A stretch of 64,000 nt of DNA from Perna viridis. Its lineage: Eukaryota. Both the position numbers and the translations under genes were made by a program. The DNA lies in NCBI GenBank assembly GCA_037379345.1, contig CM074517.1, positions 4,092,001 to 4,156,000 on the forward strand. Direction: 5' to 3'. This document shows positions 1 through 38,380 of the stretch, one piece after another (positions within the stretch are counted from its first letter, which is position 1; each line of letters opens with the position of its first letter). The notes below the pieces were generated by a model. It saw only the letters and a program-made list of their open reading frames with translations, was not told the origin of the DNA and did no database searches.

Positions 1-3000
1 TATTGGGGGTCGGCGATATTCGGCCTGCCGAAATGACAGACAGACGGACGGACGAGGTGTCCGCTTGTTAAATTGGGGTATGTTGCACAAACAGTCGTTT
101 ACAACTGAATTGAATTCTATCGAGGCAAGCAGGTGTGACAACAGATAATGTTATTGTGTGTATTTTAAAAAATATATATACATCAAAATTATTTTTTTCA
201 TTTGATTCTTAAAATTATTTCCATTTATTTAAAAAATATATATTAAAGTAAACATTTTGTTGTTATAATAAATTTTCATTCATATTTTGTGAATTCAGTA
301 TGCCTTCATTTGATTTAAACATAAATATACTGTAACAGATCTTATTGAATACATGTAATCAATTTATCGGGTAATTGTAGAAAAAAAACTTGACAGCGAC
401 AAGATATGCTGAACTACCTCCGAATTCTGTTTACAGTCAACTTGCAATCTAAACTGACTGAAATACATGCACATTGTATATATCCATAAAAGTTATATTT
501 TACCCAATTCCAAAAGAAAATTTCCGTAGAATTAAAAGCTCCAGTAAACACCAATTAACCATGTCCGTATTCTATAATGTCATTTACTTGTTTTTGATAC
601 AGTTTTTTTTTATAAAGTCATCAAATAAAAGATGGCAAACTGCCAAATATGTTTGCAGATAATGGAAGTTGCTAGCTGACACTGTGCAAAGATAAAAGAA
701 GTCGCACGTGCTACCACACCAATCGAGTCACTTTCGCGATAAATGCAAGATGTTTATTAAACTCTCAATTTCCGAATTAATTCTATTAATTGCGTTTAAT
801 TACATCGGCTTTGTTTATTCTAAACACTTACATGTTTCACGCACTATGAAATATATTCTAAAGTGTTAGAAGAGCGTTCCCTTGGCGAGCATGCAGAACA
901 AAAAATCATGGTACATGGAAACCACTAAAAGAATAAAAGTATCACACACTTATTAGTAAGAATGTCTTGTGTCAAATATTGATCTACTTTTCTCTAAGAA
1001 TTGTTATAATATATACTGTATACCGAATAAACCAGTCATATGTGAAAGACCTCATTTATTTAAAGCATGGCAAAATCAGGGGGATGGTCATTTTACATTA
1101 AAGGGGGGGGGTGTCCTATCCAGATTTGTTTCACTCGGTACGTTGACATGTCAAGTCTATAAAAACATATGGTATTAAGAGCTTGTTTTATTTTAAAAGA
1201 CGATTCTTACCAAATGCCCATCATTTTGCTTTAAATAGATTAAATTCTCAATTATAAAGGGGATAAACACACTTAAATAAACATTAACAGTACCTACATG
1301 TGTATACATGTAATAACAAAATTATGTAACATATGTGACATGGTTATAATGATCTAAGTTTGAAGATTTATTTCAATGAAGAAAAAAATAAATGCATCCC
1401 CCACATCATTATTAACCTAGACCCCGCTTATTGGGTATTAAATATTGAAACCTATACAATATTTCAAATTTATATATACTACGTGAAAACTGAACGAATT
1501 TGTCTGTAAACATGTACTGTATTTACGGACATGTAGATGTAATCGGATTGTGCACTGTTTATATCGTCCATAAAATCATAACGAGGGCCATTCTCTATTC
1601 TTTTTTGTGTTCATATATCAAGTGTTTTATAAATATTTTTTTAAAATATTTTTTTTTCTGATCTTGGGTTTTGTATACCCCGCCAGGCGAAGTAGCGAGA
1701 TATTATGCGAATCAGATAACTGCTTTGAAAGTATGCATAGTATTTTAAGTGCCATGCAATACAGGGTAAGTTCGATATGCAATCAATTCAGTTCCATTTT
1801 TGAAGAGTTGGTGCATATTCCCGAAGACACCGATAAATCTTCATGCAATTGATATATAGGTACATGTATGTATGCAAATGATTAGCGGTTGAAGTAGCAT
1901 CAAGTATTTGTACTGGAATAAGCAGGAACGGTTGGTATCGGGCCAATATTTTTTGTTTGAACCGCACGCCGTGTGTATGCTCTTTTCGCTGTACAATCGA
2001 GGTTTGAGTGCTAAGCCACACCTCGATGTATATAGGTATACAATACATTATCATTCAAACGTGTACACGCAAATAATAGTAATATTTGCAAGTCAAAAAA
2101 AATAATCACCCTTAAATATCACACTGACAAGATTGTAACATGTTTAGCTATTTAAGTTAAAATTCGCATTTTGAACAGACTGATTACATTGCAAATCGAT
2201 TTTTGAGACTCACAATCTTACAAAATATTGGTGACTCTGAAATGCTATAATAGTATCTAAAATGTATCCCCAGGTAAACAATATATATGACCACCAAAGA
2301 CTGCTTTTTTACTCCTTTAAATATAATTATTTTTGTTTCGACAAGGATTTATATTTAATTCCTTGGTTTCGGAATAATCTATTCTACGCTACATTTAAAA
2401 AAAACTTGATTCACTACCAATAGAACGGTTGCAATCTGCAAGCACGAATCCAAGGACGACTGTACCGGGTGTACGCCCCTCCACCCAAAATTAAAAGTTT
2501 TTTTTGTTTGTATATCATATCTTTATTTTTTATAAATATTACCTCCAGATATTGGGTTTATTGTGATCTTGGGTTTAGGAGTAAGATCACGTGATGTTCT
2601 GTTTTTATGGTGTGACGTAATAGGCTGGAATGAAAACCAAGTTAACACAATATAACTTTATTAAAATAGATGTTTCTTGTATGGCGGCCGTTGTCCAAGT
2701 GGCCCGAATAATATAATCAAAACAATATGATAATGCATTAGAATAGGTTAATAGCTAACATTTATGCATAAATTAAACAATGGGGAATTTAACTCATATT
2801 TTGATAAAGTGGGGGAATTTAGCTCATATAATGTTATTAGACAGTGCCAAACAAATATTGTGAATTATGAAAACATGGGGCTTCTTTTACTTAAATGTAA
2901 CTACATGGTTGCCATAGAAACCAAAATGTAAACAATAATGATTGACATATCTAGATAAAGATTAAATTGAAACTGTCACTAAATTGACATAATAACTACT

Positions 3001-6000
3001 AAAAACATATATACAACGCGCTGTGATCTAAAGAAAAAGTTAGTAAATGAAATGCAAAGCGTGCAGCATAATTGAAATTCAAGTTACGCTTAATAAACTA
3101 TGTTGGTATTGAGCTGCTAAAAAGTATTACATAAGTACAGCTCATTTGTTTAATTTTACCTTTAAATGCCTATTTACGGCTGAATTCATAGCTATAAATG
3201 AAATGTAACTTTGCCGCTGTTTACAAAATAAAGTTTCAAGTGGAGATAACTCCTACAATATATCTTAAAACCAAAGCTTGAACTTGTTGCCAATAAATGC
3301 GCATGAACCATAGTAAGTATTGCAAAGTAAGTAATTGAGACAATGATTCAGTAGATTATTATAGAACTACATACACATAAGTACATGTTAAAATGTACAC
3401 ACACATATATGAACGCAAATAACAACTGATTGTCATGTGCTAATAAAGATATTCTATTCAGATAAAGTGTGCTAATTACTGCAAGTTAAAACACTTAAAA
3501 ATAAGTATCAAAATGTAATTTATACTAAGACATAAATATCTCGTATTAACTATTAAACATTCAAATTGTAATATACAAATTTACTACTTACCTGGAATGA
3601 AAACCAAGTTAACACAATATAACTTTATTAAAATAGATGTTTCTTGTATGGCGGCCGTTGTCCAAGTGGCCGAATTTACCAAACATAAAGTTATGTTTTC
3701 CCTCCAGGTGAGGCCCATTGAAGGAAAATAGCTATATACACAAAGAGCAAATATATTAAAACCCCTTATTGAACCTCTATGAAAAAATATGTGAAAAGCC
3801 ATTTCATGTCACCTAATCCACCTATGTTAAGTGCTAGGACGCAGTCCTTAATCCGGATATGCTATAATCTTATCCCTGATTTTGTATAGCCTTAATTATA
3901 CAGTTAATTATCAAGTCTTGGTATCTTACGTAAGATATTTACATACTTAAAACATGTTGGCACTACAGCATTATGTTTCTTTTTAAATATATGTTTATTA
4001 AAATACTTGTGAAACAATATTAAGTTTAGGTGACTGGCTTGGACATTACAATGTACAAACATGAAAAATATCAAATGAAACAATAAAGAAAATTTAGGTG
4101 ACTGGCTTGGACATTACAATGTACAAACATGAAAAATATCAAATGAAACAATAAAGAAAAATATATGCATATTATGTACAAGAAGGGATGATGGCTTGTT
4201 TTCCCTATCACAAATACTCCCCTCATTAAGGTTTCTTTGTCCTCAAAGAACAAAGCTAATTGTCAAATAAATAGTAAAATGACTGATCAAAACAACATTC
4301 ACATCCGATACCATCAGATGGCAAGTCACACGAAGAGGCAGAAGACCATGCCCAACGCATACAATGTTTATATATTGAGAACTTTAGCCAAAGAGGTACG
4401 TCTGTAAAAGATCTCCCTAGCTATGTGGTTGGTTTGTAAATTTTTTTTTTTTTATTTGACTACTTGGAAAAAGTTGTTATGCACTATCAATATATAACAA
4501 GTAAATGGTGACTTGAACATGTGTTTTAAGCATCTTGCTTTGATGGGATTTATTGAAATTAGATCAGGTACATGTAAGGTGTGTTTAGTGTGTGTATTTA
4601 TAATGTTGAGGCCTGACAATTGAATGTGTAATCTGGTGAAGATGGTGCCGGAGATTCTCATGTTAGAAATATTGTGTGGATTTGATATTTCCCAGTCTTG
4701 TGGACATAAAGGTAGATCTATAAGTGGAACAGTTATACAGTGTATACCATTACTGATCTCTAACAAAACTTTGGTACAATGTTTGGTGCAAAATTGTTTG
4801 TAAAAATAGTGAATAACACCAAAAAATGCAATAATGGTGAAAGCTGACATTGTGATGGAAGACCATTGATAGATGTGTGGTGTGAATGAAATTTGAATGC
4901 TTTCTGTGGTTGTCAGTGGTGAAAACTTGTAATGAAATGTTGGTGGTGTTTGAGGAGTAACAAAAGCATGTGTTGATGGTACTTTTTGCAGTAAGACTAA
5001 TGCAGCTGTTAGTGCTCTAACCTTGTTAAACAGAATGACACAGCTAACACTTACTAAAAGTGATAAGCCTAGAGCAGCAATTGAAAAAATGCCATCTAGA
5101 CTTGGCCATGAGTCATTAACATCTATGTCACCTTCCAGCAGAGGCTCTGACAAAGATGTAAATACTTTTCTATCTTGCTTTACTGCTGTGGCAATTCTTT
5201 TTAAACTTAAATGCAATTTACTGTCTTGTGCCAGCATGGATGAAAATGAGTGGTTGTATAACTGAATGTTTGGAAGTGAGATGTCTACTGGCTGTGTAAA
5301 AGTTGTATCTCCTAAAATGGAGTTGTAAGTGTCTGATGAAAAGAAGTGTTGTATTAACGCAAGGTTTACAGGGTGTACAATAGTTATTTTATCTGTGTGA
5401 TTCTGACATTTTCCAATTTTAGCAGGAATAAACAATAAATCAGTTTTGACAGAGCATAAACATGGAACCTGTACAAGGCAAAATGCACATCCCTTGTTTA
5501 TTTGGTGTCCTGAGGGACAATCGAATGAAATAGTTTTTGTTTGATAAACTAACAACATGTCAGAGGTTAATTCTTGTACCTCAGGTTGTATTGTATTTGT
5601 AATGAATCTGAAGTCGCATTCTGAATGTACTTTTTGTTTGTCATTGTACAGTAATGCAATTGAACAAGTGGGTGCAACCGAAGATAAAAGTGGAAATGAA
5701 TTTTTGCAAAGTAATGTTTCTGATCCTTCACATGATTTAACATAGTTGTTTGTGAGCTCTGCAAATTGTCTGTTGTCTGATGAAATTATCAAGTATTCTG
5801 GAAGATTTAAAAGCTGTGTGGCATGATTGCTTGAAGTGTTTATAGGTACAGGGTATGTATGTATTTTGTATAATGTAAGCGGTGTTAAAAAGGTTGATAT
5901 AGGAAATTTGATACTGATGAATAAAAAGTTGTGATGTCGTGCATATAGGATGTTCGCATGTGCATAGTAAAAAGATGGATCTGTGCTTGCTAGAAAAAAT

Positions 6001-9000
6001 CCCTTGTACTTAGAATTCAAAATATTTTGAATATGTTGTAAGGTCATCTTTAGAATATGTGGCTTTAACAAAAATGGTGACAATTTTCCCTTAATTAATT
6101 CGTGTATTGCCAACTTGAGTTCTTCTAAATATTTGTTAATTTCTGTTGTTTCATTCATTTGCTTAATCAGAAAGTTTGACAGTTTCATGTTAATTCGTTC
6201 GAAATGGGCAACGAATTTAGCTGTTTCTTTTGTAATATTCTTAATACCTTCATAGTTGTTTTCAATACCTTTGATTACATTGTCAAACCTATCATTTGTT
6301 TTTTCCATGAATGAGGACAATAATTCATCATGATGTATAAGGTCTTTTGCAAAAGCATTGTTCTTATGGATCAAAATGTTTATGTGTTTAGCCAATCGGT
6401 TGACATCATCTACGGTTGCTGTGCCGAATAGAGATTTTGAAATGGATCCTATAAAATCAAACAATCCACGGCGAGTTCTAGATTCAGTGTCAGATTTAAT
6501 TGTCACATCTGTATGCTTTAACATGTTATGCACCATGTCCACTGTTTGGTTTAAATTTGTCGATACTTGTGTCCTTATCGCTGATAACTGTGACACTACT
6601 TGATTTAAGATGAAACAATTGCTATGTATAATATCACACTGTTTAAATACTTCATGTCCTTGTTTTCTTGGTAAGGGTATTTTAAAAGTATGAGTCCAAT
6701 ATTCACAGCTGGGTAGTAGTTTAGCTTGTTTGGTAAAGAACACTCCATAGTTAATACGTTGTAAGCTCTCTCTGTCTGTTGACATACCCTCGACCATACT
6801 TATTATCATGAGAAGGCAGGCAAATCTTAGTACTCCTATTGAAAACAAAGATGAAGAAATTTTAAGACGGCAGTGTTTATCGTTTAAGGGAGGATCCATT
6901 CCCTAATAGCACTATGTAACATGAGAACGAGCTCATAATTTTGACAAACACTACACTAGAAATCATAGAAGAGAAAAATGTAAGAAGAGTACATAGGAAG
7001 TGCCTTACAATCTCACATCTAACTTGTAGATCAAATCAGGCATAGATGAGCAATCAAAAATGAAGTGAAGTTGTTTGCAATTGTTAAATGCAAAATGCTT
7101 TAATGTAAAATGAAAACACTTGAAAGTGAAATGCAAAACACTGTAGTGTGAATTATGAAAACATGGGGCTTCTTTTACTTAAATGTAACTACATGGTTGC
7201 CATAGAAACCAAAATGTAAACAATAATGATTGACATATCTAGATAAAGATTAAATTGAAACTGTCACTAAATTGACATAATAACTACTAAAAACATATAT
7301 ACAACGCGCTGTGATCTAAAGAAAAAGTTAGTAAATGAAATGCAAAGCGTGCAGCATAATTGAAATTCAAGTTACGCTTAATAAACTATGTTGGTATTGA
7401 GCTGCTAAAAAGTATTACATAAGTACAGCTCATTTGTTTAATTTTACCTTTAAATGCCTATTTACGGCTGAATTCATAGCTATAAATGAAATGTAACTTT
7501 GCCGCTGTTTACAAAATAAAGTTTCAAGTGGAGATAACTCCTACAATATATCTTAAAACCAAAGCTTGAACTTGTTGCCAATAAATGCGCATGAACCATA
7601 GTAAGTATTGCAAAGTAAGTAATTGAGACAATGATTCAGTAGATTATTATAGAACTACATACACATAAGTACATGTTAAAATGTACACACACATATATGA
7701 ACGCAAATAACAACTGATTGTCATGTGCTAATAAAGATATTCTATTCAGATAAAGTGCGCTAATTACTGCAAGTTAAAACACTTAAAAATAAGTATCAAA
7801 ATGTAATTTATACTAAGACATAAATATCTCGTATTAACTATTAAACATTCAAATTGTAATATACAAATTTACTACTTACCTGGAATGAAAACCAAGTTAA
7901 CACAATATAACTTTATTAAAATAGATGTTTCTTGTATGGCGGCCGTTGTCCAAGTGGCCGAATTTACCAAACATAAAGTTATGTTTTCCCTCCAGGTGAG
8001 GCCCATTGAAGGAAAATAGCTATATACACAAAGAGCAAATATATTAAAACCCCTTATTGAACCTCTATGAAAAAATATGTGAAAAGCCATTTCATGTCAC
8101 CTAATCCACCTATGTTAAGTGCTAGGACGCAGTCCTTAATCCGGATATGCTATAATCTTATCCCTGATTTTGTATAGCCTTAATTATACAGTTAATTATC
8201 AAGTCTTGGTATCTTACGTAAGATATTTACATACTTAAAACATGTTGGCACTACAGCATTATGTTTCTTTTTAAATATATGTTTATTAAAATACTTGTGA
8301 AACAATATTAAGTTTAGGTGACTGGCTTGGACATTACAATGTACAAACATGAAAAATATCAAATGAAACAATAAAGAAAAATATATGCATATTATGTACA
8401 AGAAGGGATGATGGCTTGTTTTCCCTATCACATTATACAAACTAGAAGTACCAAAATAATATAATTTGAAAAACGTTAACGCGAAATGAAACTATGATCC
8501 ATTAAGGCCTTAATGACCTTTGTTCCCCATTTTTTAATCTCATGTATATATTATCAAAAGTATGAATAATAGTATGAAGTACAAAAAAAGAAAAAAAAAT
8601 AGCATACATGTAAAACAAACAAAAAGGCGTTTTCGGCAATTGGGGAAGGGGTACACAAGCTTTTTTCCTGCAATCCAGACAGTTAATGTCACAATATTTA
8701 AATGGATAGAACTCCTCTAATAATTTGTACCACAGTATTAAACTCATCAAAAAGTAATTTATTGACCCTATTATCCTTGTATCCCACCCCGTTTTTTATT
8801 TGTTTTCATTTCATCATAATTTCATGTTTATTTTATCATTCATTTTATGTTCATCGCTTGGATTTCTTAAAGTTTATATTTAATTGCACATCTTTAAATG
8901 ACAAAAGATTATCTGAAAGCGAATTGTTCGAAATCAACTTAATAACGTGAAATTTTATAAGATGTTACTAAGACAGGATTTATAAAGGGTTAATCTTATC

Positions 9001-9779
9001 CGTGCACCGACAGTTTATACCAGCATCAATTAAATCTAAGCGTGTAGTTTACACACTTTAAGTAAAAGTGGCTAACTATCAAAATCACTACATATTCCGT
9101 CCATCTGTAAAATAGAAAAAAAATAACATACATGTATATGTTATTATATTATATACTTTACAGGGATTTAAAAAAAATGATAAAATCCACGAGATACATA
9201 TATGAGTTGTTCCTTTGCTGAATGAGAAACTTTTACTGCTATAAAAAAAAAGTTTTGTTGCGCAACGGAAAATACCAACAAAAATATGCATTGTTTTTGT
9301 AAAGTTGTAGTTCCCCAAACTTGTGGCGTGTTTGTGCATATCACACATACAAAGCCTAATTTGAATTGCCTTTTAATGTTTTTTTCCAAAATCGTTGACA
9401 TTTGGGTAGAACAGCACAGCGGCTCATCCCTATCACATCGGAAGTTACTCCCCAAAGAAAACCTCGAGGTTGAAGACTCCGATTTTTCAACAAGCCATAC
9501 GTGATTAAGAACAGGGTGTTTAGTTCATTTATGTAATTAATAGGTAGTGCCCTGGAGGGTCAATCAATCGGCACGTAGTGTGTGCTCGCTGTGTGTATGT
9601 ATTTGAACGTTTACAGCTAACCTGTCGGGTCTGTCAATAAACATAATATATAGGTATACATAGTGAAGAATGCTGTTCGAGTCGTGCGTAACAATGCTTT
9701 TCCTCTACAGCTTGCCGAAGAAGTTTGCTGTGAAACTAACATAGCTGTACACAGCACATGTGGTTGCACTGCAGGATAA
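1..9779 (+). CDS. Putative 3' end of an unidentified spliced gene (exons ~1-77, 1687-1730, 9711-9779) ending in a Cys-rich tail
   Basis: Phase-compatible GT/AG exons join to ...IGGRRYSACRNDRQTDGRGVRLLNWG/EVARYYANQITALK/LAEEVCCETNIAVHSTCGCTAG*. Acceptors are clean (ccgccag at 1686, tcctctacag at 9710). An alternative donor exists at 1765. No family recognised. Confidence 0.4.
2611..2709 (-). repeat. Third copy of the LTR poly(A)-signal segment plus an alternative TCACA terminus
   Basis: 2625-2709 matches 3592-3675 and 7880-7963 with a 1-nt insertion. On the minus strand it continues CCTATTACGTCACA instead of GTAAGT. Confidence 0.85.
2859..4212 (-). repeat. 3' LTR (1354 bp, includes 68-bp tandem duplication 4025-4092/4093-4160)
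   Basis: By eye it matches 7147-8432 except one substitution (3470 T vs 7758 C) and the 68-bp duplication. Confidence 0.9.
4213..4226 (-). promoter_or_regulatory. Polypurine tract (plus-strand primer site)
   Basis: Minus strand reads ATGAGGGGAGTATT immediately before TGTGATAGGG of the 3' LTR, the canonical PPT position. Confidence 0.65.
4452..6899 (-). CDS. env: Envelope fusion glycoprotein, baculovirus F / errantivirus Env-like (class I), 815 aa, intronless
   Basis: N-terminal hydrophobic signal (aa ~15-38). Furin site RTRR (141-144) followed by fusion peptide GLFDFIGSISKSLFGTA. Heptad-like helical region, Cys-rich ectodomain with several N-x-S/T sequons, TM at aa ~603-624 and a second TM at ~679-700. 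Confidence 0.85.
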   Translation of the reverse strand: MDPPLNDKHCRLKISSSLFSIGVLRFACLLMIISMVEGMSTDRESLQRINYGVFFTKQAKLLPSCEYWTHTFKIPLPRKQGHEVFKQCDIIHSNCFILNQVVSQLSAIRTQVSTNLNQTVDMVHNMLKHTDVTIKSDTESRTRRGLFDFIGSISKSLFGTATVDDVNRLAKHINILIHKNNAFAKDLIHHDELLSSFMEKTNDRFDNVIKGIENNYEGIKNITKETAKFVAHFERINMKLSNFLIKQMNETTEINKYLEELKLAIHELIKGKLSPFLLKPHILKMTLQHIQNILNSKYKGFFLASTDPSFYYAHANILYARHHNFLFISIKFPISTFLTPLTLYKIHTYPVPINTSSNHATQLLNLPEYLIISSDNRQFAELTNNYVKSCEGSETLLCKNSFPLLSSVAPTCSIALLYNDKQKVHSECDFRFITNTIQPEVQELTSDMLLVYQTKTISFDCPSGHQINKGCAFCLVQVPCLCSVKTDLLFIPAKIGKCQNHTDKITIVHPVNLALIQHFFSSDTYNSILGDTTFTQPVDISLPNIQLYNHSFSSMLAQDSKLHLSLKRIATAVKQDRKVFTSLSEPLLEGDIDVNDSWPSLDGIFSIAALGLSLLVSVSCVILFNKVRALTAALVLLQKVPSTHAFVTPQTPPTFHYKFSPLTTTESIQISFTPHIYQWSSITMSAFTIIAFFGVIHYFYKQFCTKHCTKVLLEISNGIHCITVPLIDLPLCPQDWEISNPHNISNMRISGTIFTRLHIQLSGLNIINTHTKHTLHVPDLISINPIKARCLKHMFKSPFTCYILIVHNNFFQVVK
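7147..8432 (-). repeat. 5' LTR (1286 bp)
   Basis: Direct repeat of 2859-4212. The minus strand has a TATATA-like box (~8021-8026), AATAAA (7912-7917) and a CAG|GTAAGT donor (7880/7879). Confidence 0.9.
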
Positions 9780-11185
9780 GAAACTGATGGACGCTGTAAA
9801 CTGCTACCACAGTGGAGACGATCATGGGCTTCTGTTAAATCGAATTAAGTGGTTTTTTTGTTTCTTGTTTTGGTTGTTTTTTTCTTCTTTTTTATTTTAT
9901 ATTCATAAAACTTGAAATAACATGTAATTGATTAATAACTCCTATAATGTTTGCTCCTCAGCTAGTGAGTTTTTGTGGAAAGCAATGGATACTAACAAAA
10001 CACTTTAGACCAACAAATTTCCGTAAACACGACAATTCTTATGTATACCATCATACATGTTGTGTCACTCATCTAATTTCCCCTTTTATTCTTAAAATGA
10101 AATTTGTCGTTGTGAAAAGCTAGGATTTAAGAATTATTAAATAGTATTCGCTTGAGAATATATGCATGTACAATGTACCTATTGACCATAGAGTAGTGAC
10201 CTCAAGTAGTAAAGCTATACAATGTATTATAGACAGTCCTTGACACAGTCCTATAAGATGAAGAGGTATTGCGGTTACTGAAGTACGTGTTAACAAAATT
10301 ATTTTTTAAGTAAAACTGAAATATTTGTTTGAGAATATACTTTGTAAAGTTAATTTCAGACGTTAAATTGTAATTATAAGGTCATCCAGATTTCCTTTTT
10401 ACAGTTTGGTAGAACATTACAATTTTCTTTAGTATCGCAGAATCATAGATTTGTAACTATAGGTCTATGGCACTACCCGTGGAGACATGTAATGCAGTAG
10501 GTAGCTGTCGAATACTAGTAAATAAAATCATTAGAAACAACGTGTGCATGCAAAAATCTATAGAATGTATAAGAGTCATAAAATTTTTCCAGTCTTGTAT
10601 GATATCGATTTTTTTCTTCGAAAGATCACCCATCAGTTAGGAATCTATGGACCCGACCGCCGTTGACACACATTTAATGTGCACAATGTATTCGTAATAG
10701 ATAAATAAGCTAAAATGCCCACGTACAGTACTAGTGTACAGCCGAATCTGTTCGACTCTGCTTAAAAATATGACATACAGGAAATCGGAATTTCATATGG
10801 TTGTCTTACTGTAAAAAAAACAAAAACAAAAAAAACCAAAAAAAACCAAAAAAACAATACACATCCAAAAATACAGCATCAACCTTTCTATCTACTGGCC
10901 CGAGACAATTAAGCAATGACACCAGTATTTTAAAATCTAGCAAGTGATATTATAATTATATAAGAGGATGGAATTCCACATTCGTCTATTCTCTGCTCTC
11001 ATGCGTATAGTTTCCAAGTTACAACATTTATTCCTTGAGAAATACCCGTTAACTACGCGGCTCCTATAAAATTGTTTTAATTTCCAACGGCATAAAGTCT
11101 GTACTTTTCTGTAGTGGTGGTATCTATATTTCAAAAATTCCTGTTGTACATTGAATCCAACACCTTTTCACGTTTTAATTTTACA

Positions 11186-15092: not shown

Positions 15093-16600
15093 TGAAGAAA
15101 GGATTTTAATGTGTAAAGACAGATAATATTTACTGTTTGACAACCCTTCTTTTGATTTCAATTCTTACAATTGTATGCTAACAAGTTTTCCTGTAACATC
15201 ATGTTGATAAACATTCTGAAATACTCCCTCTACAACAACTTGAAATTATACAAAATATACAAAACCAATATACAATACACAGGTGTGAACACTTATTAAT
15301 TAAATGAATGATTGATTGATTGATTGTTGGGGTTTAACACCCGAGCAGCAATATTTCAGCTATATTCAGGCGATATTAATTAAATGAAAATGGCAAATTA
15401 ATTTAAATTGATTCAAGGCAGTGGAACATTGGCAAATTTTTTATTAGGAATGATGATAAATATTAAATTTATACACCTACAAGGTAAATCATGATCATGG
15501 CACATGCATCTATAAAGAGAGTGTAAAACTAATTTGCAGATGGAATTCTAAGAGTACTCTTTTATTGCTTTCCTTTCCTCCTGAATCTTGTTTCTGCTGT
15601 ACAGAATGCTGTAGTGAATGACTATAGTTTAGATGACCAAATCATTGATATTTCTGATATTTGGCCAATTTGTGGTAACCCAAAAAAACATGCAAGTAGC
15701 ACATAATCTCTGCATAAATTTAAAATCTATTCATGACCACTGAATTTAGTAGCTTAAAAGTCATAAAAAAAGAATTGATTTTTTTCCTGTTTACCCCTTG
15801 TTAATCTCTTGCAATTGCTCAGTAGGAGATCTTCCCCAATAGGATTTAAAACTACATGTATAGTAATGTTTTTTTTTAACTAGAAAATTTGAAGTACAGA
15901 TTTATGTCCTTGCAAGATTCTTCTATGGTGACCGTTGAAGGTGTGGTGTGAGTGAATCTATGACAGATGGAAGTCATGTGTCATATTGGAAACAGACACT
16001 TGATATCAATCAATCAGTTCATGAGGACTACTGTAGAACCTTTGAAAATTTTACTTTAATCTATGGGCAACATATCTTTGTCACAATAGTTTTTGCCTAA
16101 GTAACTGTGCTCTATTTAGAAAAATTGTGTAATTTGGGCACATTATGTAGAATATCATGCAAAACTTTCATGGGACTTGGTTATCTATCTCTCAAGTTGG
16201 TGCTTGAGTTCAGTGAAAATCAGTTAAGCATTAAGTTAACTGACTTTTTAGTAGAATTTGAGCATCAATGTACATTTGAATACTCTGGGTTTCTTCAATA
16301 AGTCCATTAGGAGTGTAATGTTAATAAATCTTTACTAAAGATTCAATTACAGTTCAAGACCAGTGAAAGGTCAAAGCTCTTTAAAAGACATATACAATGT
16401 AGTTCTGTGATGTTTTTTTCTTCAGTTATCATTTGAATATTACATGTCATGTACTTGTATTCTTCAAGAAGTTCATGTTTGAAACTACACATATATATAA
16501 ATGTACATGTAATAATCAAATATGTATTATTTATGACTGCATATTAGCTTTTTTCTAGTTAACAATTATTTTTGAAAGGAATTAGGAGGTGGTTGGTAAA

Positions 16601-19600
16601 ATGAAATCTAAAAAGAGGAGAACAACTGCTGAATCAGACAAGGCAGCAGAAATGGCTGATAGTACCAAGACCAACACTGTGGGTTCATGTCCAAACTCAA
16701 CTAACAATGGAAACAAGACTCATACAAGAGACACAAGTAGCAAGGACATTGATCATAATGATTATTTAAACATACTTTCATTGGAAATTCTATGCAACAT
16801 TCTGAACTGCCTTCATCTAAGGGATTTCCTTAAGCTTGATCATCTTAGTAGAAAGTTGCATGATGCAGTCAGCATGCATTTGCGAACCTTGAAGACTCTT
16901 GACTTCAGTAACAGGGATGTCATCAGTTGGATATGTGGTTTGTCTGATCAGTCCTTTATCCATCTGTGTAAGCGTTGCAATGATGCCCAGTATATATATG
17001 GATTCCATCCTACCATTACATCTAAAAGGAGGCATCGAGGGAAAAAAGGACTCAGTATTCCAGGTATAATAGATGCATTAACTATCCTTACTAAGCTAAA
17101 AGGTATAGAAGTGTCTGACACATTGATTCTTGAAACTATATTCAGTTATTTTCCAAATATTGAAGTAATGGGTACATTCCGTAACCGTAATGGTTGTTTT
17201 CCTGTAATTGAAGTAAACTCACTTCTGATCCCTGAGAATCCTCTCATCACATCAATGCATCTGTTTGGTATTGTTGTTCCTAGACTACCACCAATGGTAC
17301 TGCTAAAGGATCTTCAGCTTCATCATGTTCATTTCACCAATACCCACCCATTTACAGACTTTGCTGTGCCTAGTTTGAAGTGTTTTGTAATGGCTAACTG
17401 TGCAGGGCCTGCTGACTTTCTTAGATATGTCCCACTGATAGCAGGATTAGCTGCTGCTAGGAGCCTTAAACGACTGGAACTAATCCGAGTCCCATTTTTA
17501 GGTAAGGCTGGAGTAGTTAATAAGAAAAGAATGATCACTATTTTTTGTTCATTAATTACAACAGTATTAAGTAAATATTAAAATTTAAGGCCTGTATACC
17601 AACAATAGCAGTAGATGAATTACTTATAGATATCTATAATCTTTTAGGATCAAATAGAGACTTTGCAATCAGGTCATAAATTATGTCAACATCTTATCAA
17701 ATATTTTGGAGAAGACCCTTTAAATTTGTTTTAATTTGTTCTATTTGTGAAGCAAATAAGTAGATATTATGATAACACATGTATATGTAAACTTGTAACT
17801 ACAACATTTGTACCTATTTCATATAAAGACAAAATATTCATCACCCATATATTCCATGCACTAATTTACATCATTTATCTATGTTACAGGAGGGTTATTA
17901 CATCATGTTATTGGAGAGAGTCTGAGGGTCCAAAGATTCAAGAACCTCAAAACTTTAAAGTTTGGAGCCTGTAAACATGTGATTGTAATGGATGCTGGCT
18001 TCCTTGCCATAGCTTCAGCTGAAAAGTAGGCATTCAAAGTTTGAAGCACTTGTTGTTACAAATGAAAGGTTTTATACCTACAATGATAAAACAATAACAC
18101 ATTTTCATTGTATAAGAATATGAATTAAGTACATTGTAGCATTCTTTGTAAGAATCAGGCACTGGATGGCACATCATTATCAATTTGGTCTTTTTTGCCG
18201 CAACATATTTAATACATCTAAAAGCGACCAAAAAGTCATTTAAATTTATTTTGAAGCATCTGTGCATAGATATTATTTTGCTGCCTTTATCGTGTATATA
18301 GGAGAAAGTGCGGGAAAATTTTCCTTTAATCAAGTTAATTTGACCCATCTTAAAGTATCTTAAAAGGCAAACTTTACAAATACTTTGGTTATTTTTGGAT
18401 GTCGTCGTTGGGTTTTCTACAAAAGCTGACAAACTTTACCCTACTAGTGTACCAATTCTATGATACAAAGTTCAGGGTCAACTACATTACCGAGTAATGT
18501 TTCATTATCAATAATTTGTTACTTACTTGCAAAGTACATGAATAAGCTCATATTAATTTATTATACTTATTGGTTGTGTTTTAATTGTAGTTTAGAAGAG
18601 ATGTATATACAACCCTCTCTATCAAAAGACAGTCTCTTTGTTGCTCTAAAGATGTCTTTTGCTAGGTTTCCTGTCTTCAACAGATTGTGTTTAGGATATA
18701 CTGAGCCTTTCCAAGAATCTGGTATGGAATTCATGGTGTATGAAAATTTAATATTTGAAAACTTCAGTTCTTATTGTTTGGCACTTCTGATAAGGAATCC
18801 TTTATGCATGATTGTGTCATGACAAGGAAAATATTTTATGAAAATTTACGTATAGAACTGTTATTAAAAGGCAAAAAATAAGAAAGAAAAAACAGAAGTG
18901 GAAACCTTAATGTGGTAGTAATAATTGTTTTTTTGTTTTTTTTTTGTTTTCTTTTATTTTGCTTTGTTTGTTTTTCTAGGAAAGGAATTTTAGTTTACAA
19001 CAATTTGGGTTCTGCATTTGGTCGGCCACTACTTAACCATGAATGTTTTACATGATAAACTAATTTTATTGCAGGAAATTGGACTAACCAGGACCTCGCC
19101 ATCATGGGTTTAGCTTATATAGTGGAGACACCAGCACCTATCACAGACAATGGAATGAAATCTGTCGGTGAATGCTTCATGACATTAAAATTTCTGGAGA
19201 TATACAACTGTCCACATCTCTGCAGTCCAACTAGATGGCTAACACCAGGTAAGTACAAGGTTTTTGGGTAGCACTGGCTTGCACCAGGTGTGTACAAGGC
19301 TTTTAGGACAGTACTAACTGCCACCATGTAAATACAAGGCTACTGGGTGATGCCAGATTATATACAAGGGTTTTACGGCAGTACACTGACACCAGGTCCT
19401 ACCTCCACAAAACTTAAGTTTAGAATATATATAAATTCCATGTTAACCTCGTACATACAAGGCTTTATGGTAATACTGAATAACACTAACTACATACAAG
19501 GCTTCAGGGTAAAACTGAATAACACCAGGTACATACAAGGCTTCAGAGTAAAACTGAATAACACAAGGTACGTACAAGGCTTCAGGGTAATACTGAATAA

Positions 19601-22600
19601 CACCCGGTACGTACAAGGCTTCAGGGTAATACTGAATAACACCTGGTACATACAAGGCTTCAGGGTAAAACTGAATTACACCCGATACATACAAGGCTTC
19701 AGGGTAATACTGAATAACACCAGATGAACACAAGGCTTCAGGGTAATACTGAATAACACGAGGTACATACAAGGCTTTAGGGTAATACTGAATAACACCA
19801 GATGAATACAAGGCTTCAGGGTAGTTCTGAATAACACCGGATGAATACAAGGCTTCAGTGTAGTACTAAATAACACCAGATGAATACAAGGCTTCAGGGT
19901 AATACTGAATAACACCAGGTACATACAAGGCTTTATGGTAATACTGAATAACACCAGATGAATACAAGGCTTCAGGGTAGTACTAAATAATACCAGATGA
20001 ATACAAGACTTCAGGGTATTACTGAATAACACCAGGTACATACAAGGCTTCAGGGTTTTACTGAATAACACCAGATGAATACAAGGCTTAAGGGTAATTC
20101 TGAATAACACCAGGTACATACAAGGCTTCAGGGTAATACTGAATAACACCAGATGAATACAAGGCTTAAGGGTAATTCTGAATAACACCAGGTACATACA
20201 AGGTTGCAGGGTAGTACTGAATAACACCAGGTACATACATGGCTTTGGGGTAGTTCTAAATAACACCAGGTACATACAAGGCTTCAGGGTAGTTCGGAAA
20301 AATACCAGGTAAAAAAAGGCTTCAGGGTAGCTGTGAATAACACCAGGTAAATACAAGGATTTTGGGAAGCAGTGGCTGACATCATATAATGACAAGGATT
20401 TAGGGTATACTGTGTTGATAAGAGGTGTGTACAGGGCTTTAATGACAGATCTGACTTACACAAGGTTAGTACAAGGCTTTAGGGTAGCACTAGCTGACAA
20501 CAGGTAAGCACAAGGTTTTGAGATAATTCTTGACTGATTATATGGCTGGGAGATACATCTTTGTTAATAATGTTATATTTACAAGGAATGATTTAAATAG
20601 AAACAGAAGGAAGCTTTTGGATCAATGAAAGTGTTTGCTCTGTATTGTATACCATTAAGGTACATTTACTGAGACAAGAATTTCAGTTCTTTCATTTTTT
20701 TGTGTGTCCAAAGTTTAAACACATCTTTGTTAGATTTTTTACATGACTTATGAGAAAAAAACTAGTCTACAACACATATCATTACAGCTGCCAATGCATG
20801 GGATTCTCTACGAGAGCTGGTACTGAGGAAATGTCATGCCCTAAAACTGGATGATTTTTGTGATTTGATACCATCCCTACCATCTTTAGAGGCTGTACAT
20901 CTAGATCAGATGTTCAGAGAACCACCAAAAGGATGTTCTCGGTACTTGATAGGGGGTGTTTGGCATCGTAAAAGAAGGATTTTATTTTAAGAACTGCAAT
21001 TATAGGGATAAAATCAGTACTGGAATGTATTAGATTTTTCTTTGAAATAATCATTTACTGGAATGTTTTATATACTGGTATCCTCGTGCTGATATTTAGA
21101 ATCTACTACCAGTTAGAGTGCCAGACAGAAAAAAGTTAAAACCAGGATTTTACTACTAAAATTCCTTTTTTAAATGCATATTTATTACCAATACATTGTA
21201 TTGCCAAATTTTGCCTCTTTTGTTTGCTTCTTCAAATAATTTCCTGTATCCTATAGAATTTATATATTTATTAGCCTTTATTTTCATACAAGTTTTGTTT
21301 GAATTTCCTAGAAAAGAAAAGTTTTTCAGTGTTGTGTACTTCTTTGTACACTGTACAGAAACAATTATACAGTACACAAAACCAGTTAATTTACATCCAC
21401 AACTGTAATTTTCTCATACTTTTTTTTATTGCTAATTGATAGAATCAATTTGAAATGAAATGGATAAGTATTTAAAAGTGCACGTTTATTAATAATTTTA
21501 TTTTTACAGAGTTGGTATTAGTACTGGGTCAGGATTTGGGTTATCTTCATCTCTGATACCTGGTGATACACTGGGTGGTGGTATTGGCCAGAATAACCAA
21601 CCTGCTAACCAAAGTCATGATAGTGATTCCTCATCTAGTGACAGTGATGGTGAGGAACAACAGCATCCACCACAACAACCAATTGATCCTACTATATCAA
21701 ATCAAGGGAGACAACTGCCTCAAAGTGACCCTCTAACAAATCAGCTAAAGTCTAGAAACTCAGACCAACCATGTCAAAATTCTTCTGCAAATCCAGACAA
21801 TGTACAAAGTAATGATTCAGTCAGTCAAGTTACCTCACAGAGATGTGACACTACTGGCCAAGACACTTCACAAAGGACTGGTTCAGTCAGTAAAATTACA
21901 TCACAAAGATGTGACACAATTGGCCAAGGCACTTCACAAAGGACTGATTCAGCCAGTCAAGTTACCTCATGGAGGTGTGACACTATTGACCAAGGCACTT
22001 CACAAAGTATTGATTCAGTCAGTCAAGTTACCTCACAGAGATGTGACACAATTGACCAAGGCACTGTACAAAGGAATGATTCAGTGCAGCAAGTAACTAC
22101 ACAAAGTACTGACTCTGTCTGTCACAGCCATTCAATAGATACTGACCAAGTCAATCAAACAACTGAAGAGAAAATCCATGTGTCAGATACAATGGTTACA
22201 GAAAATATCAGTGCATGTGGCAATCAAGCTGGCCAAGCTGGTTCTCCTGTACAATTGCCTGATTTAATTAACTGTGAACCTTGTTTTAATGATTCTGCAA
22301 AGTCAGTGGATGTTAGGATTGAAGATAACTCAATTAAAAACTGTGATGACAGTGAGCAGTGGATTGATCCTATTTCAGAAAATGACTATTCGTTGTCAAA
22401 CACTCCTCATTCCATCTTGGAAAGTAGGAATGAAGTAGAATGCTCAGGTTCTGCATTGGAGAATAGTTCGAATGAAAGGTCCTCATCTAATTCTGTTGTT
22501 AATTCTGAAAGGGGTAAAAACCTACTAATATTTCCCTCTATATCTTCCGATAAAGACTACAGCAACACCCCATCAAGTGGTGAATGTAGTTGTATTAAAC

Positions 22601-25600
22601 AAAGAAGATTTACTGATGATTCTAGTGGTTGTTCATCAGGTTCCTCTTATTCTTATACCAATCAACATAATTGTACATGCAATAGAACACATAGTGTTGA
22701 TCCGTCTAGTACCTGTGGTAGACAAAATTCTGCATGTTGTGAAATTTTGCTTACAACTTCTGACAAATCTAAGTGTAAAAATTGTGATTCTCTTCATCTA
22801 AATGAGCCAGAAGACATTAATGATCAAATTAGTGATTTCGGAAATAATAGTTCAAAAAGTTCTTTGAACATGTCAAATTCAAAGAAAACAAAAGAATCAA
22901 GTATGCTTCAAGAGAACTGCAGATTGAAATCTTCTTTAAAAAATAAGAATAGTGAAGCATTACCTGAAAATTTTGTAGCAGAAAGTAAAACTATAAGATT
23001 TGATGAAGAGAATCAGTGTGATCATTTGAATGCACAAGTAAATTTGGAGCCAGTTATAGGGGAGGGTGCTAGAGATTGTGGTTCAGTTACCACTGCTTCT
23101 GACTCTGTGGTAGCTGAAACCTCAGCAGCACCTGATAGCAGAAGGGAATGGGTAGGGAAAAGTTTGTATGGGAAGAAAAAAGGGTTAGTTAGGAAAAATT
23201 CTAATTCCAAAGGAGGAAATGAAATGGATGGCCACACATATGATGAGAAGAAGGATTTAAGTTTTAATTATAGTAATGTAGATAAAGTAGATAGAAAAAA
23301 AGAGGCTGAAATGATAAATGGGAAATCTGTGAGTGAATCACCTGGGACTTATGATCAAGACGATTCGTCAGACAAAATTGTTGATTTCTCTGTTGACCAT
23401 TGTGCTAAAGAAAGTTCAACAAAGGAGAATGTAATAACAATAACCAAAATGGATGAAGAAACAGGCAAAGAAATAATATTATTCAGTGGAAAAATACCAC
23501 TTAGTAACATGCCATCTAACCAAGAGTCAGATGTTGAATCAGACTGTTGTCGTATCACAAGGTCTAGGGCTCAGAAAATGGCTGCAGGAAACAAAAGAAG
23601 ACAAAATAGGTCACCTGTTGTCAAGAAGAGGAAACTTAGAAAAACAAAGAAGACATTGGATTTAGTTGTAATGGCAGATAAATGGTGTCAAGTTGATGCT
23701 TCTGGTTTACGACACCACAAAGGGGACCAGGAGAAATGTAAATGTAAGAATGAAACCCTTATCCACTCTGTTAGATTTTCATCTGATGTACAATATCAAG
23801 TTTTATCCTATGATTTTAATATAACATAGTCCTTTGGAAATGCTGAACTTGGTGGTTTCCAAGGTTTTTAGTCTAAAATCAATTATTCCTGAAAAGTTTT
23901 GTGCACATCTCTAAGGTCAGCATCACCTGATGGTTTTTGTCTAACATACATGTACATTACTCAGTCTATGGGCGAATCTGAATTTTTTAGGCATGAATCA
24001 AAAGTTTATTTCAAATGATATTTTTTCATTGTTGGGATGTTTATTTGTGTGTCGCCCTAAATAATTTAACAGCATATCCTTTCCTAAATTGTTTGAAGTT
24101 TAGCAATTTATTTTTTATGGTATTGACTTTTATAGCTTCCATGGATTTTAATTACTTTTACAAGTATCATTATGATTTTGTTATAGTTACAGTAAATAAA
24201 CAAGAGAAGATTAAGAAATTTTGAATTATGATTAAACATGTTTACTAACATGTTAAATCAGTTTTAAAAAAAAATTATCAAATGTTTTAGAATTATTTTG
24301 CAATACATAAGTTGGTAAATTGATTTATTTTCAGGTGGTACCAGTGGTTATTTAAAGGTGATGACACAGAATAAAAAGCGTCCTGTAATGTTGTCAAAAG
24401 GTACCAGTACAAGTGACCCAGTCATGGAGGAGGACTATACACAGGTCTGTAAATCACATATGAATTTCTGACGTATCTAAAGAACTATTTAGCTTGTCAG
24501 CTTTAGGGAATTGCTTTAGTTGTTGTAATAATGTAATAAATGTACATTAATTGAAGATAAGAGAAAATGTACATTACACAACAACCATAGTAGTACAATT
24601 CATATGCTACAATAACTGGTCTTCATCCTGAGTTTTACATTGAGTTGGAATCAATTAATTTTTATTCTTTCCTTCAACTCTATATTGCATAGTTATTTTA
24701 ATCAAATACTGTTTATATTGAAACAGGTATTAAAACTGAAATCCAGATCTCTACAGTGTATAACCCTCAACATGGTAGGAGTAACAGATATTCAAATAGG
24801 TCAATGTCCACAACTTTCTAAACTTACAGGTATGATCATTATTTTAATATAACTTAAATTTTTAAGAAAATATTATGTTTAATACTGTATGCTTTAAAAA
24901 TTTTTTCATTTATTCTTTTGTATTCTGCTCCCATATCAGTTTCCTGTGCAGATGATGTAATCACTATTTCAAAGCTTTACACCTCCATCATACTCATTGC
25001 TGAACTCCAATCCTTCATGCATATTAGTACAGTTAACTAGTAACTGTGCAGATTTGTAATGAGTAGTGTTGGTGTCTTGTGAATACGGTACACCAGTAAC
25101 TTTGCAGATTTGAAATGAGTGGTGTTCGTGCCCTGTTAAATAGGGGACACCAGTAACTTTGCAGATTTGTAATGAGTAGTATTTGTGCCCTGTGAATATG
25201 GTACACTAGTAACTTTGCAGATTTGTAATGAGTAGTATTTGAGCCCTGTGAATACAGTTCACTAGTAAATTTGCAGATTTGTAATGTGTACTGTTCCTGC
25301 CCAGTGAATACGGTACACCAGTAACTTTGCAGATTTGTAATGAGTAGTGTTTGAGCCCTGTGAATACAGTTCACTAGTAACTTTGCAGATTTGTAATGAG
25401 TAATGTTCGTGCCTCATGAATACGGTTCACTAGTAACTTTGCAGATTTGTAATGAGTAGTGTTCATGCCTTGTGAATACAGTTCACTAGTAACTTTAGAG
25501 ATTTGTAGTGAGTAGTGTTCATGCCTTGTGAATACGGTTCACTATTAACTTTGCAGATTTGTAGTGAGTAGTGTTCCTGCCTTGTGAATTTGTTCACATC

Positions 25601-29168: not shown

Positions 29169-29257
29169 TTTGATTCTGATAAACAGTGAAATCTGAACAA
29201 AGCCCCATTTGGACTTCTAAAATTAGTTTTTTTTTTACCAAGATTCTAACTACATTT

Positions 29258-29736
29258 GAACAGACAGGTTTAGTGACTGTTCAGGGTTAGTTTAGAAGGT
29301 TTACTGACTGTTCAGAGTTGTGTTTAGATAGGCTTACTGACTGTCCAGTGTTCTGTTTAGACAGGTTTACTGACTGTTCAATGTTCTGTTCAGATAGATT
29401 TACTGACTGTTCAGTGTTCAGTTTAGACAGGTTTACTGACTATTCAGTGTCCAGTTTAGACAGTTTTACTGACTGTTCTGGGTTCTGTTTAGACAGGTTT
29501 ACTGACTGTTCAGGGTTCAGTTTAGACAGGTTTACTGACTGTTCTGGGTTTTGTTTAGACAGGTTTACTGACTGCTCTGGATTCAGTTTAGACAGGTTTA
29601 CAGGCTGTTCGAGGTTCAGTTTAGACAGGTTTACAGGCTGTTCAGGGTTCTGTTTAGACAGGATTATTGACTGTTCTGGGTTCAGTTTAGACATGATTAC
29701 AGGCTGTTCAGGGTTCAGTTTAGACAGATTTCACTG
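29258..29736. repeat. 33-bp minisatellite (~14 copies) just downstream of the FBXO38 stop
   Basis: Unit CAGTTTAGACAGGTTTACTGACTGTTCAGGGTT, giving 11-aa periodic spurious ORFs. Confidence 0.93.
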
Positions 29737-30149
29737 GATATGTATTTGTATGGAACTTGTTAATTAAACCTAGCCTAGTATAAATTTATTGTAAAGAAAA
29801 AAAAAACAATATATTTAAAGAACAGCTCTGTGGGATAAATATGTAAAAAAATGAAGTTAGCACAATACCAACTGTGGTCTTATTCTTGAGATATAAATGA
29901 TTGTCATACACATATTAAATTAAAATTAAATTAAAACAATAGATTTTCTATGCTCAATCCCTACAATTTACACCTTTAGCCAAAAAGGAGTCAGTACCAT
30001 TATGTAATATTTTGTTCAGGTATCAATCATAGGATGAGGATGTAATTTACATTGGACAGTATAGGGGTTTATGTACATGTATGTTGGTACCTGGTAGAGA
30101 GTATTCATTCTTTGTAAAAAATGATTCCAAATTATCTTCTAAATATACT

Positions 30150-32965: not shown

Positions 32966-33258
32966 CCGATTAAACAAGAAATATCAGAAATATATACATC
33001 ATTTTCTTGATGAGAAATGAATTGAAACAGACTTTTTCTCATCTCATGCAATTTTCAGTTCTTATCATACTATAAGAATGAATATTTTAGCAAAAAAAGT
33101 CATTAGACTTCAATTCAATGACTCAGTGGAAACTGCAATAAAGTTCCTCGATCAAACCAATGTTGGAGAGTTTAAATTAAAATTAGTTACTATACCAAAA
33201 AATCTAACAAATTCCGATGGAGATATCAACTGCCCTCAACAGATTGAATTTATTCGTA
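32966..33258. repeat. Left copy of ~293-bp direct duplication flanking the LINE
   Basis: Matches 38002-38293 with about 12 differences counted by eye. Confidence 0.9.
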
Positions 33259-38001: not shown

Positions 38002-38293
38002 CCGATTAAACAAGAAATATCAGAAAAATATACATCATTTTCTTGATGGGAAATGAATTGAAACAGACTTTTTCTCATCTCATGCAATTTTCAGCTCTTA
38101 TCATACCATAAAAATGAATATTTTAGCAAAAAAGTCATTGGACTTCAATTCAATGACTCAGTGGAAACTGCTCTAAAGTTCCTCGATCAAACCAATGTTG
38201 GAGAGTTTAAATTAAAATTAGTTACTATACCCAAAAATCTAACAAATTCCGATGGAGATATCAACTGCCCTAAACAGATTGAAATTATTCGTA
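38002..38293. repeat. Right copy of ~293-bp direct duplication flanking the LINE
   Basis: Matches 32966-33258. Confidence 0.9.
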
Positions 38294-38380
38294 AATCTTA
38301 ACTCCGAATTTATTCGTAAATCTCAACTCCGAATTGTCAATATTTTTTATCCCGAGATATTGATCATTAATATTTTTATG

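Follow-up and report, generated by a model that had tools for sequence, protein, structure and literature searches.

A very recent env-only retroelement of Perna viridis is followed, beyond its 3' LTR, by a third, donor-less copy of the LTR segment that carries AATAAA, and the resulting 248-nt tail is best read, tentatively, as having come from a sister type of LTR, of which it would be the U3-R-short-U5 end, joined to the element at this locus. The window analysed is a stretch of 64,000 nt (assembly GCA_037379345.1, contig CM074517.1, positions 4,092,001-4,156,000 of the forward strand); coordinates are positions in this window, and the element lies on its minus strand.

An env-only element with young LTRs

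The element is bounded by a pair of LTRs in direct orientation that carry short TG...CA inverted repeats, a 5' copy of 1286 nt running from TGTGA to TCACA (8432-7147) and a near-identical 3' copy of 1354 nt (4212-2859). They differ by one substitution in 1234 nt, and the 3' LTR contains a 68-nt tandem duplication (4160-4093/4092-4025). A putative TATA-like box (8026-8020) is located 109 nt upstream of the AATAAA in the 5' LTR. The leader (7146-6900) includes a pyrimidine-rich acceptor, its AG ending at 6956, and is followed by an intact F-type envelope ORF of 815 aa (6899-4452; Pfam Baculo_F, E 3.4e-18). A polypurine tract (PPT) and short spacer (4227-4213) precede the 3' LTR in the same layout as in two related elements, L001 and L002. 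The envelope is 65% identical to a Mytilus californianus protein, and its relatives number 77 among 4386 candidates, the named ones being molluscan except for one bacterial-MAG entry.

No gag or gypsy-type pol remnant was found by tblastn with the gag/pol of L001 and L002 and seven fused proteins, which matched env alone in the element. A tRNA primer-binding site (PBS) of the form CA-N(0-3)-TGG is absent at 7147, 2859 and 2611; a TGG located 9 nt after 2859 differs, by eye, at four positions from the nearest tRNA 12-mer in the PMC13524379 table. An internal CA-CC-TGG (7998 and 3710) was rejected as a primer site, as its two mismatches, by eye, to one of about 190 tRNA 12-mers are expected by chance and the motif lies in both repeats. 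Complementarity that might allow self-priming does not exceed 9 nt, no tRNA genes were found, and an Rfam search over 2000-10500 returned a single weak match under the gathering score. The element is best explained as a non-autonomous env-only derivative of bivalve F-env Ty3/gypsy (errantivirus) elements, a placement that rests on its envelope and on the pol of its relatives.

Both L001 and L002 encode a pol with a chromodomain, as reported for the cnidarian/mollusc/annelid errantivirus clade (PMC13524379). The element shares with the bivalve errantiviruses described there the F-type env, TG...CA LTRs in the same size range, the PPT and the acceptor before env; unlike them, it has no gag, pol or PBS and possesses a third R copy and a second terminus. 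Splicing and non-autonomous copies find no mention in the available part of that source.

A third copy of the poly(A) segment

An 80-nt segment is 100% identical at 2625-2704, 3592-3671 and 7880-7959, with AATAAA at 2662, 3629 and 7917 (to 7912), and an exact repeat of this length is far beyond chance. The shared identity, which is taken as the putative R region, reaches 84-85 nt: it covers 7963-7880 in the 5' LTR, lies within 3675-3586 together with the donor in the 3' LTR, and occupies 2709-2625 in the third copy, where the 80 exact nucleotides are joined by 5 nt with one extra G. The observation made in the sequence-only reading of this DNA was borne out. Both LTR copies run on into a GTAAGT donor (GT at 7879 and 3591), which matches the U1-complementary consensus at 10 of 11 positions, and the perfect donor 9-mer occurs once in 108 kb of flanking strands. 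The third copy breaks off at the boundary with the donor and gives way to 14 nt (2624-2611) that end in TCACA at 2611, a candidate short U5; the chance of a TCACA ending no more than 14 nt from a given point is about 1.6%.

Between the 3' LTR and the third copy lies a 149-nt spacer, X (2858-2710), so that the order of repeats is LTR...LTR-X-R. X has no second copy in the 64-kb window. X opens with a 5-nt spacer and TGT, as do the PPT-LTR junctions of the element, L001 and L002, and it holds an imperfect 27-nt tandem pair (2832-2806/2802-2776); U3 regions often carry tandem repeats. No homology between X and the U3 of the element was detectable, as 963/1000 and 604/2000 shuffles scored equally well.

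The T+G content after the third copy is 0.30 vs 0.60 for the donor-linked copies, the U/G-rich downstream tract is missing, and the AATAAA is positioned 52 nt from the outer end. The span 3591-2625 does form a 967-nt GT...AG unit, as had been proposed, but only as a consequence of the repeat, its terminal AG being the last two bases of the repeated segment. A stronger, textbook branch point and acceptor are predicted inside it at 3045-3028, with an equivalent in the 5' LTR at 7333-7316.

A conserved donor beside the poly(A) signal

The splice donor is situated inside the LTR, 38 nt downstream from the poly(A) signal, at both ends of the element. Together with a U-rich downstream tract (7888-7857 in the 5' LTR), this module is retained in the 3' LTR of the pol-env relative L001 at 26 of 32 positions. 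None of 107,936 host positions matched as well (the window was picked after the match was seen), a wider query was equalled by 11/1000 shuffles, and of the 136 AATAAA sites in host sequence only one is followed by a donor of this kind. Because the module is conserved in the L001 LTR, the donor adjoining the poly(A) signal looks functional, and its conservation in a distant relative appears to be new here. Other comparisons with L001 (whole LTR, R only, tail) were weak or not significant (84/300, 36/1000, 75/1000 and 324/1000 shuffles), and nothing in L002 matched (293/500 and 282/500); only the donor module of L001 did.

Most likely, a short first exon is spliced from the LTR-internal donor to the acceptor ahead of env, and the same donor keeps the 5' poly(A) site silent. 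U1 silencing by a downstream donor has a precedent in HIV-1 (PMC3694450), whose donor, unlike that of the element, is located beyond the LTR at a distance of about 195 nt and has no counterpart at the 3' end; the element's donor is within the repeat and is present at both ends. The foamy virus LTR is similar in having a major donor in both LTRs that gives LTR-spliced subgenomic RNA and allows U1 to silence the 5' poly(A) site; it differs in that this donor lies upstream from the poly(A) signal, and in that foamy viruses rely on RNA structure and have no third copy, according to the available part of the same paper (PMC3694450). A structure hiding the element's donor was sought in five folds and rejected, none being significant (best z -1.21).

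The boundary of the element

Two TCACA termini compete for the 3' boundary, and the inner one is the better integrase-type end. The outer end had been likened to the other end of the element, and TGTGA is indeed shared; beyond these bases, however, it reaches only rank 46 of the 208 TGTGA sites in the window, and the inner end is joint 7th. In an unanchored comparison, 294/5000 random 30-mers scored as well as the outer end vs 109/5000 for the inner. The LTR identity breaks off exactly at TCACA in both LTRs, as for an integrase-made junction.

No exact target-site duplication of 4-6 nt directly adjoins either end. At the inner end ATAA faces ATAT, a 3/4 match that 10.8% of random sites reach. 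Past the outer end, after 2 nt, there is an exact ATAA (expected by chance in 1.0% of cases at this offset and in 3.9% over offsets 0-3), which mildly favours a single insertion bounded by the outer end. An older related LTR was suspected from 9437, where an 11-nt match to the LTR start follows a PPT-like 8-mer. It was dismissed: comparisons of its flank with the LTR, U3 and X were not significant (77, 6 and 45 of 100 shuffles, respectively), no env/pol remnant was found upstream, and a matching target-site duplication is missing.

The absence of a clean duplication at both ends could also point to an assembly artefact, either a haplotype mosaic or a misjoin at a young repeat. In the L002 LTR, a 91-nt duplication that had seemed a parallel case was discarded as a scaffold-gap artefact because it flanks a 100-N gap. 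The present window, however, has zero N, and an 80-nt copy that sits between unique sequences and differs by 1 nt is atypical of a collapse error; this explanation is very improbable.

Origin of the tail

The sequence-only reading had offered a related LTR sharing the R region as an alternative, and this is the reading adopted here, with less than firm confidence. The main part of the locus would be a recent env-only element whose ordinary identical LTRs end at the inner TCACA (2859 and 7147). The tail would stem from a sister or helper family with a second, compact type of LTR, and would represent the 3' part of such an LTR, with a different U3 remnant, the same R and a 14-nt U5 ending in TCACA. 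R may be kept identical between sister families because first-strand transfer exchanges U3 and U5 across it, and the two parts might have been joined by nested insertion or as chimeric cDNA. The distal AATAAA could then trap read-through RNA at this locus without being a designed, inherited terminator.

Several features favour the sister LTR. The inner end is the better inverted-repeat partner, and the shared stretch is R-sized and spans AATAAA, with TCACA nearby. The 52 nt from AATAAA to the outer end resemble the compact LTR of the autonomous L002, in which a variant signal is found 70 nt from TCACA and is followed by a TGG-type primer site. Bivalve errantivirus LTRs measure 244-1847 nt (23 rows with coordinates among 30 of the 36 rows of the PMC13524379 supplement), and lengths of 243 and 1286 nt are therefore in keeping with this range.

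The sister family itself was not observed in the window, as there is no second X, X is not preceded by a PPT, 2611 is not followed by a PBS, and the vicinity holds no gag/pol/env remnant. X without homology to the element's U3, the ill-fitting duplication at the inner end with ATAA past the outer one, and the PBS-less junction at 7147, which requires an additional rearrangement, also weigh against this reading. The exact stop of the third copy at the donor is more directly explained by an RNA template.

DIRS, Ngaro and PAT elements have an A...B-A-B repeat order and a tyrosine recombinase; they were excluded on the basis of the repeat order found here, the PPT and an env as the only long ORF. 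Cassandra is reportedly a three-LTR element. Troyka, with CG...CG termini, a 3-nt duplication and no env (PMC12440569), does not fit the TG...CA termini and env of this element. Closer are shared-LTR composites (PMC1950507) and the U3/U5 mosaics that arise at first-strand transfer (PMC6894440), in which recombination or template switching leaves more than two LTR-derived blocks per locus and exchanges U3 and U5 across R. The cases described in these sources have a complete third LTR as well as two internal domains, whereas the third block at this locus shares R alone and has no internal domain.

The exact stop at the exon boundary speaks for a one-off templated insertion. In the course of break repair, about 76-85 nt would have entered host DNA at a distance of 150 nt from the LTR, the template being LTR DNA or else the first exon, already spliced, of a read-through RNA. 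Host DNA would then make up X and the 14-nt tail, and the second TCACA would be a coincidence, consistent with the unremarkable inverted-repeat likeness of the outer end. An imperfect 9-nt microhomology at the left edge would explain the extra G, although comparable ones occur at 1710/3000 random ends and are not diagnostic. In addition, GCC stands as a direct repeat on either side of the copied stretch (G is followed by CC at 216/9247 sites), X ends in an acceptor-like, AG-free U-rich tract of 50 nt (1156/15,416 host windows), and the 3' LTR has another local duplication. Nevertheless, the 1.6% TCACA coincidence is required, a DNA template would also require a chance stop at the donor, and RNA-templated repair is documented only in other systems. 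This origin is regarded as doubtful.

The sequence-only reading had itself favoured suppression of the donor-linked signals, with the distal copy alone terminating transcription. This can be upheld only by assuming a two-R LTR throughout the family or helper-supplied priming, both of which would make the tail heritable, and neither is likely. In the first version, the true LTR would be the long 4212-2611 unit, its upstream R a donor-bearing, U1-silenced first exon for env and its distal copy the true R with the 14-nt U5, this copy having lost what lay between the inner TCACA and the env leader; such a deletion must begin exactly at the att-like TCACA. In the second, a PBS-less RNA would read past both donor-linked sites, end at the distal R and accept minus-strand strong-stop DNA from a helper RNA, the asymmetric end being regenerated in each cycle. 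This requires second-strand transfer without a PBS, for which no precedent was found in the literature searched.

A single heritable scheme would cover the missing PBS, the exact R identity and the short U5-like tail. It would also account for ATAA beyond the outer end, assuming an unprocessed 2-nt end, and it draws on the module conserved in L001 and on the HIV-1 precedent. The last 14 nt cannot derive from the element's own RNA, as they are beyond the expected cleavage point, and canonical reverse transcription would not transmit the asymmetric tail. The third copy is without the conserved U-rich tract, an ATTAAA is available downstream within the LTR at 3154, and 2611 has no clean duplication. 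The LTR of L002 is compact and ordinary and lacks a strong donor, and the L001 sequence ends 64 nt past its donor and cannot reveal a third copy. Moreover, one and the same molecule cannot be both spliced to the AG at 2625 and cleaved upstream of that AG, and a foamy virus donor in both LTRs need not block polyadenylation in the 3' LTR (PMC3694450).

Implications

In the open-access literature searched, neither a third R copy nor an env-only, primer-less bivalve element was found. If specific to this locus, the tail is a modest instance of LTR mosaicism, and the locus still adds an errantivirus derivative that is young, env-only and primer-less and has kept its fusion gene intact, along with splice signals for its expression. 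The conserved LTR-internal donor raises the question of how RNA ends are formed at the 3' LTR of such invertebrate elements. It is possible, but unlikely, that a bivalve env-bearing family keeps two R copies, one a donor-linked, U1-silenced first exon of env and the other a donor-less distal terminator. In its boldest form, if true, this would be a two-part retroelement system of gag-pol helper and env passenger, with strong-stop transfer via a perfectly shared R. An inherited tail would add one more way around the 5'/3' poly(A) problem to the ones covered in the available part of PMC3694450, and possibly a case of priming in trans as well.

The env-only element

On the minus strand, the 5' LTR (8432-7147, 1286 nt) and the 3' LTR (4212-2859, 1354 nt) both run from TGTGA to TCACA. 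A single substitution across 1234 nt, together with a tandem duplication of 68 nt, is all that separates them, so the element is very young. The duplication (4025-4160) is found in the 3' LTR only, and microhomology of about 10 nt marks its ends. A polypurine tract stands ahead of the 3' LTR, and an intact 815-aa ORF between the LTRs matches Pfam Baculo_F (env), its top relative being a Mytilus californianus protein (65%), which makes a mussel the probable host. No gag or pol remnant was found in the element or adjoining it, and no primer site of the form CA-N(0-3)-TGG after 7147, 2859 or 2611. With env alone retained, the element is a non-autonomous offshoot of the bivalve F-env gypsy elements that PMC13524379 surveys; their LTRs span 244-1847 nt, 10 of 23 exceeding 1 kb, for the 23 rows with coordinates among 30 of the 36 survey rows. 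A pyrimidine-rich acceptor lies 57 nt upstream of the env start, as it does in two pol-env relatives, L001 (JBEVXV010000491.1) and L002 (JBEVXT010000364.1); in insect relatives env is normally produced from spliced RNA (PMC12992720). At 4440-4456 (minus strand), the env stop codon sits in an AATAAA that leads into about 13 A residues; this may be a fossil tail or another poly(A) signal.

Elsewhere in the window, a 303-nt direct repeat (95%; 32966-33268 and 38002-38303) brackets broken ORFs whose weak match to reverse transcriptase looks to be of non-LTR type; these sequences are unrelated to the env element. A 331-aa open frame (16586-17581, plus strand) resembles F-box/leucine-rich-repeat proteins by eye and had no Pfam match at E 0.01. 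Tandem arrays have units of 39 nt (19338-20417), 66 nt (21729-22158, inside a 777-aa low-complexity open frame at 21496-23829), 56 nt (25083-25642) and 33 nt (29231-29797).

A third copy of the poly(A) segment

As the sequence-only reading had described, the segment is present in three copies. They are identical over 80 nt (2625-2704, 3592-3671 and 7880-7959), and the shared segment reaches 84-85 nt, with one added G in the third copy. It was also right that both LTR copies run into a splice donor, which agrees with the U1-complementary consensus at 10 of 11 bases (the perfect donor 9-mer occurs once in 108 kb of flanking strands), and that the third copy halts at the donor boundary. The third copy lies 149 nt beyond 2859, and the 14 nt after it close in TCACA at 2611. 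The T+G fraction after the segment is 0.30 for the third copy versus 0.60, and a U-rich tract is lacking there; a GT-rich tract lying downstream from the poly(A) signal is a conserved LTR feature (PMC3601003). A real and oddly well-formed feature, the third copy is seen at this one locus, and no description of such a structure was found in the limited literature covered. Misassembly is the least likely of four readings, and a very improbable one; the probabilities of all four are judgements rather than computed values.

A 967-nt GT...AG unit (3591-2625), whose removal had been proposed, is indeed present, but the last two bases of the repeat supply its AG, so that the unit is a consequence of the duplication. 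Inside the unit, at 3045-3028, there is a perfect branch point with an acceptor. Cleavage after the distal AATAAA would fall upstream of the final AG, so a single RNA cannot both terminate distally and lose the unit.

Inner and outer ends

In both LTRs, identity ceases exactly at the inner TCACA (7147 and 2859). Ranked by how closely they resemble the LTR start, the window's 208 TGTGA sites place the inner end joint 7th and the outer end 46th, so the resemblance of the outer end to the element's other end amounts to little more than the shared 5-mer. A TCACA within 14 nt of the third copy is expected at about 1.6% by chance. It is rather unlikely that the copy arose by templated insertion, which would account for the exact halt at the exon boundary and for the GCC repeat flanking the third copy (216/9247), but leaves the TCACA to chance, and the left microhomology is not diagnostic (1710/3000).

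The left flank of the element closes in ATAA. After the inner end comes ATAT, a degree of agreement that 10.8% of random sites reach; after the outer end come two bases and then ATAA (chance 1.0% at this offset and 3.9% when any of offsets 0-3 is allowed). The offset ATAA is a slight point for taking the outer end as the boundary of one insertion, provided that a 2-nt end stayed unprocessed; target-site duplications do not settle which end bounds the element. CRE-like and E-box-like motifs (2595-2620, minus strand) overlap and trail the 14-nt tail and would suit host regulatory DNA. At 9437-9455 (minus strand), 1 kb outside the 5' LTR, 11 nt agree with the LTR start, and the same 8-mer as the element's polypurine tract stands 8 nt upstream of them; no more homology and no retroelement remnant were found around it.

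Pol-encoding relatives

Of 53 candidate stretches from one scan across bacterial and archaeal genomes, two (L001 and L002) encode env relatives. Both carry env and a gypsy pol with a chromodomain, and L002 also has gag. Their animal errantivirus contigs sit in two bacterial MAGs in GTDB, one env being annotated as a Sedimenticola protein, and are evidently host contamination of metagenome bins. The L002 LTR is ordinary and compact, with a TCACA end, two bases and then a TGG primer site, and no strong donor was found in L002; a 91-nt duplication there was rejected as a scaffold-gap artefact.

In L001, whose env is 35% identical to that of the element, an AATAAA occurs about 940 nt past the polypurine tract and a donor-like site with a U-rich tract 51 nt further on (both within L001 7924-7998); the context of this site is identical to the element's LTR donor context at 26 of 32 positions. 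None of 107,936 host positions reached this level (maximum 23), the comparison window having been picked after the match was seen; a wider donor-module query against L001 gave 11/1000 shuffles. With the donor core set aside, 19 bases out of 24 agree, and none of 18 host donor-like sites exceeds 12; such a downstream donor accompanies only 1 of 136 host AATAAA sites. The remaining LTR, R alone and the tail show little or no match to L001. The module of poly(A) signal and donor is thus an old feature within the LTR of pol-encoding members. The U-rich tract missing from the third copy belongs to the part conserved with L001. The conserved bases ahead of the L001 donor also match the TCAKTY initiator consensus. 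The L001 sequence stops 64 nt past the donor, short of where a third copy could show.

Origin of the asymmetric end

In retroviral replication, U5 at the 5' end is the only route by which sequence past the cleavage site enters progeny. If an RNA ended at the distal R, the outcome would be ordinary LTRs closing at the inner TCACA, or else a longer LTR that is symmetrical; the observed asymmetry would not result. In foamy viruses, a donor in both LTRs alone does not block the 3' site (PMC3694450). Because RNA ending at the distal R would not give the asymmetry, and donors need not block the 3' site, we tentatively prefer the possibility that a second, compact LTR type contributed a U3 remnant, R and short U5 to the tail beyond 2859, and would have been joined to the env-only element at this locus. 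The tail geometry is compact as in L002, and its opening 149-nt stretch (2858-2710) begins with a 5-nt spacer and TGT; U3/U5 exchange across a shared R is an outcome of first-strand transfer described in PMC6894440. Against a second LTR type, no sister family was seen: the 149-nt stretch occurs nowhere else in the window and is unrelated to the element's U3. The junction without a primer site would also require a rearrangement of its own.

A heritable design, either a long LTR carrying R twice, the 5' copy of which is deleted here, or a primer-less RNA accepting a helper's strong-stop DNA, would in both forms suit the absent primer site and the offset ATAA, and is considered doubtful. If it were true in either form, the idea that transcription terminates at the distal copy would be correct.
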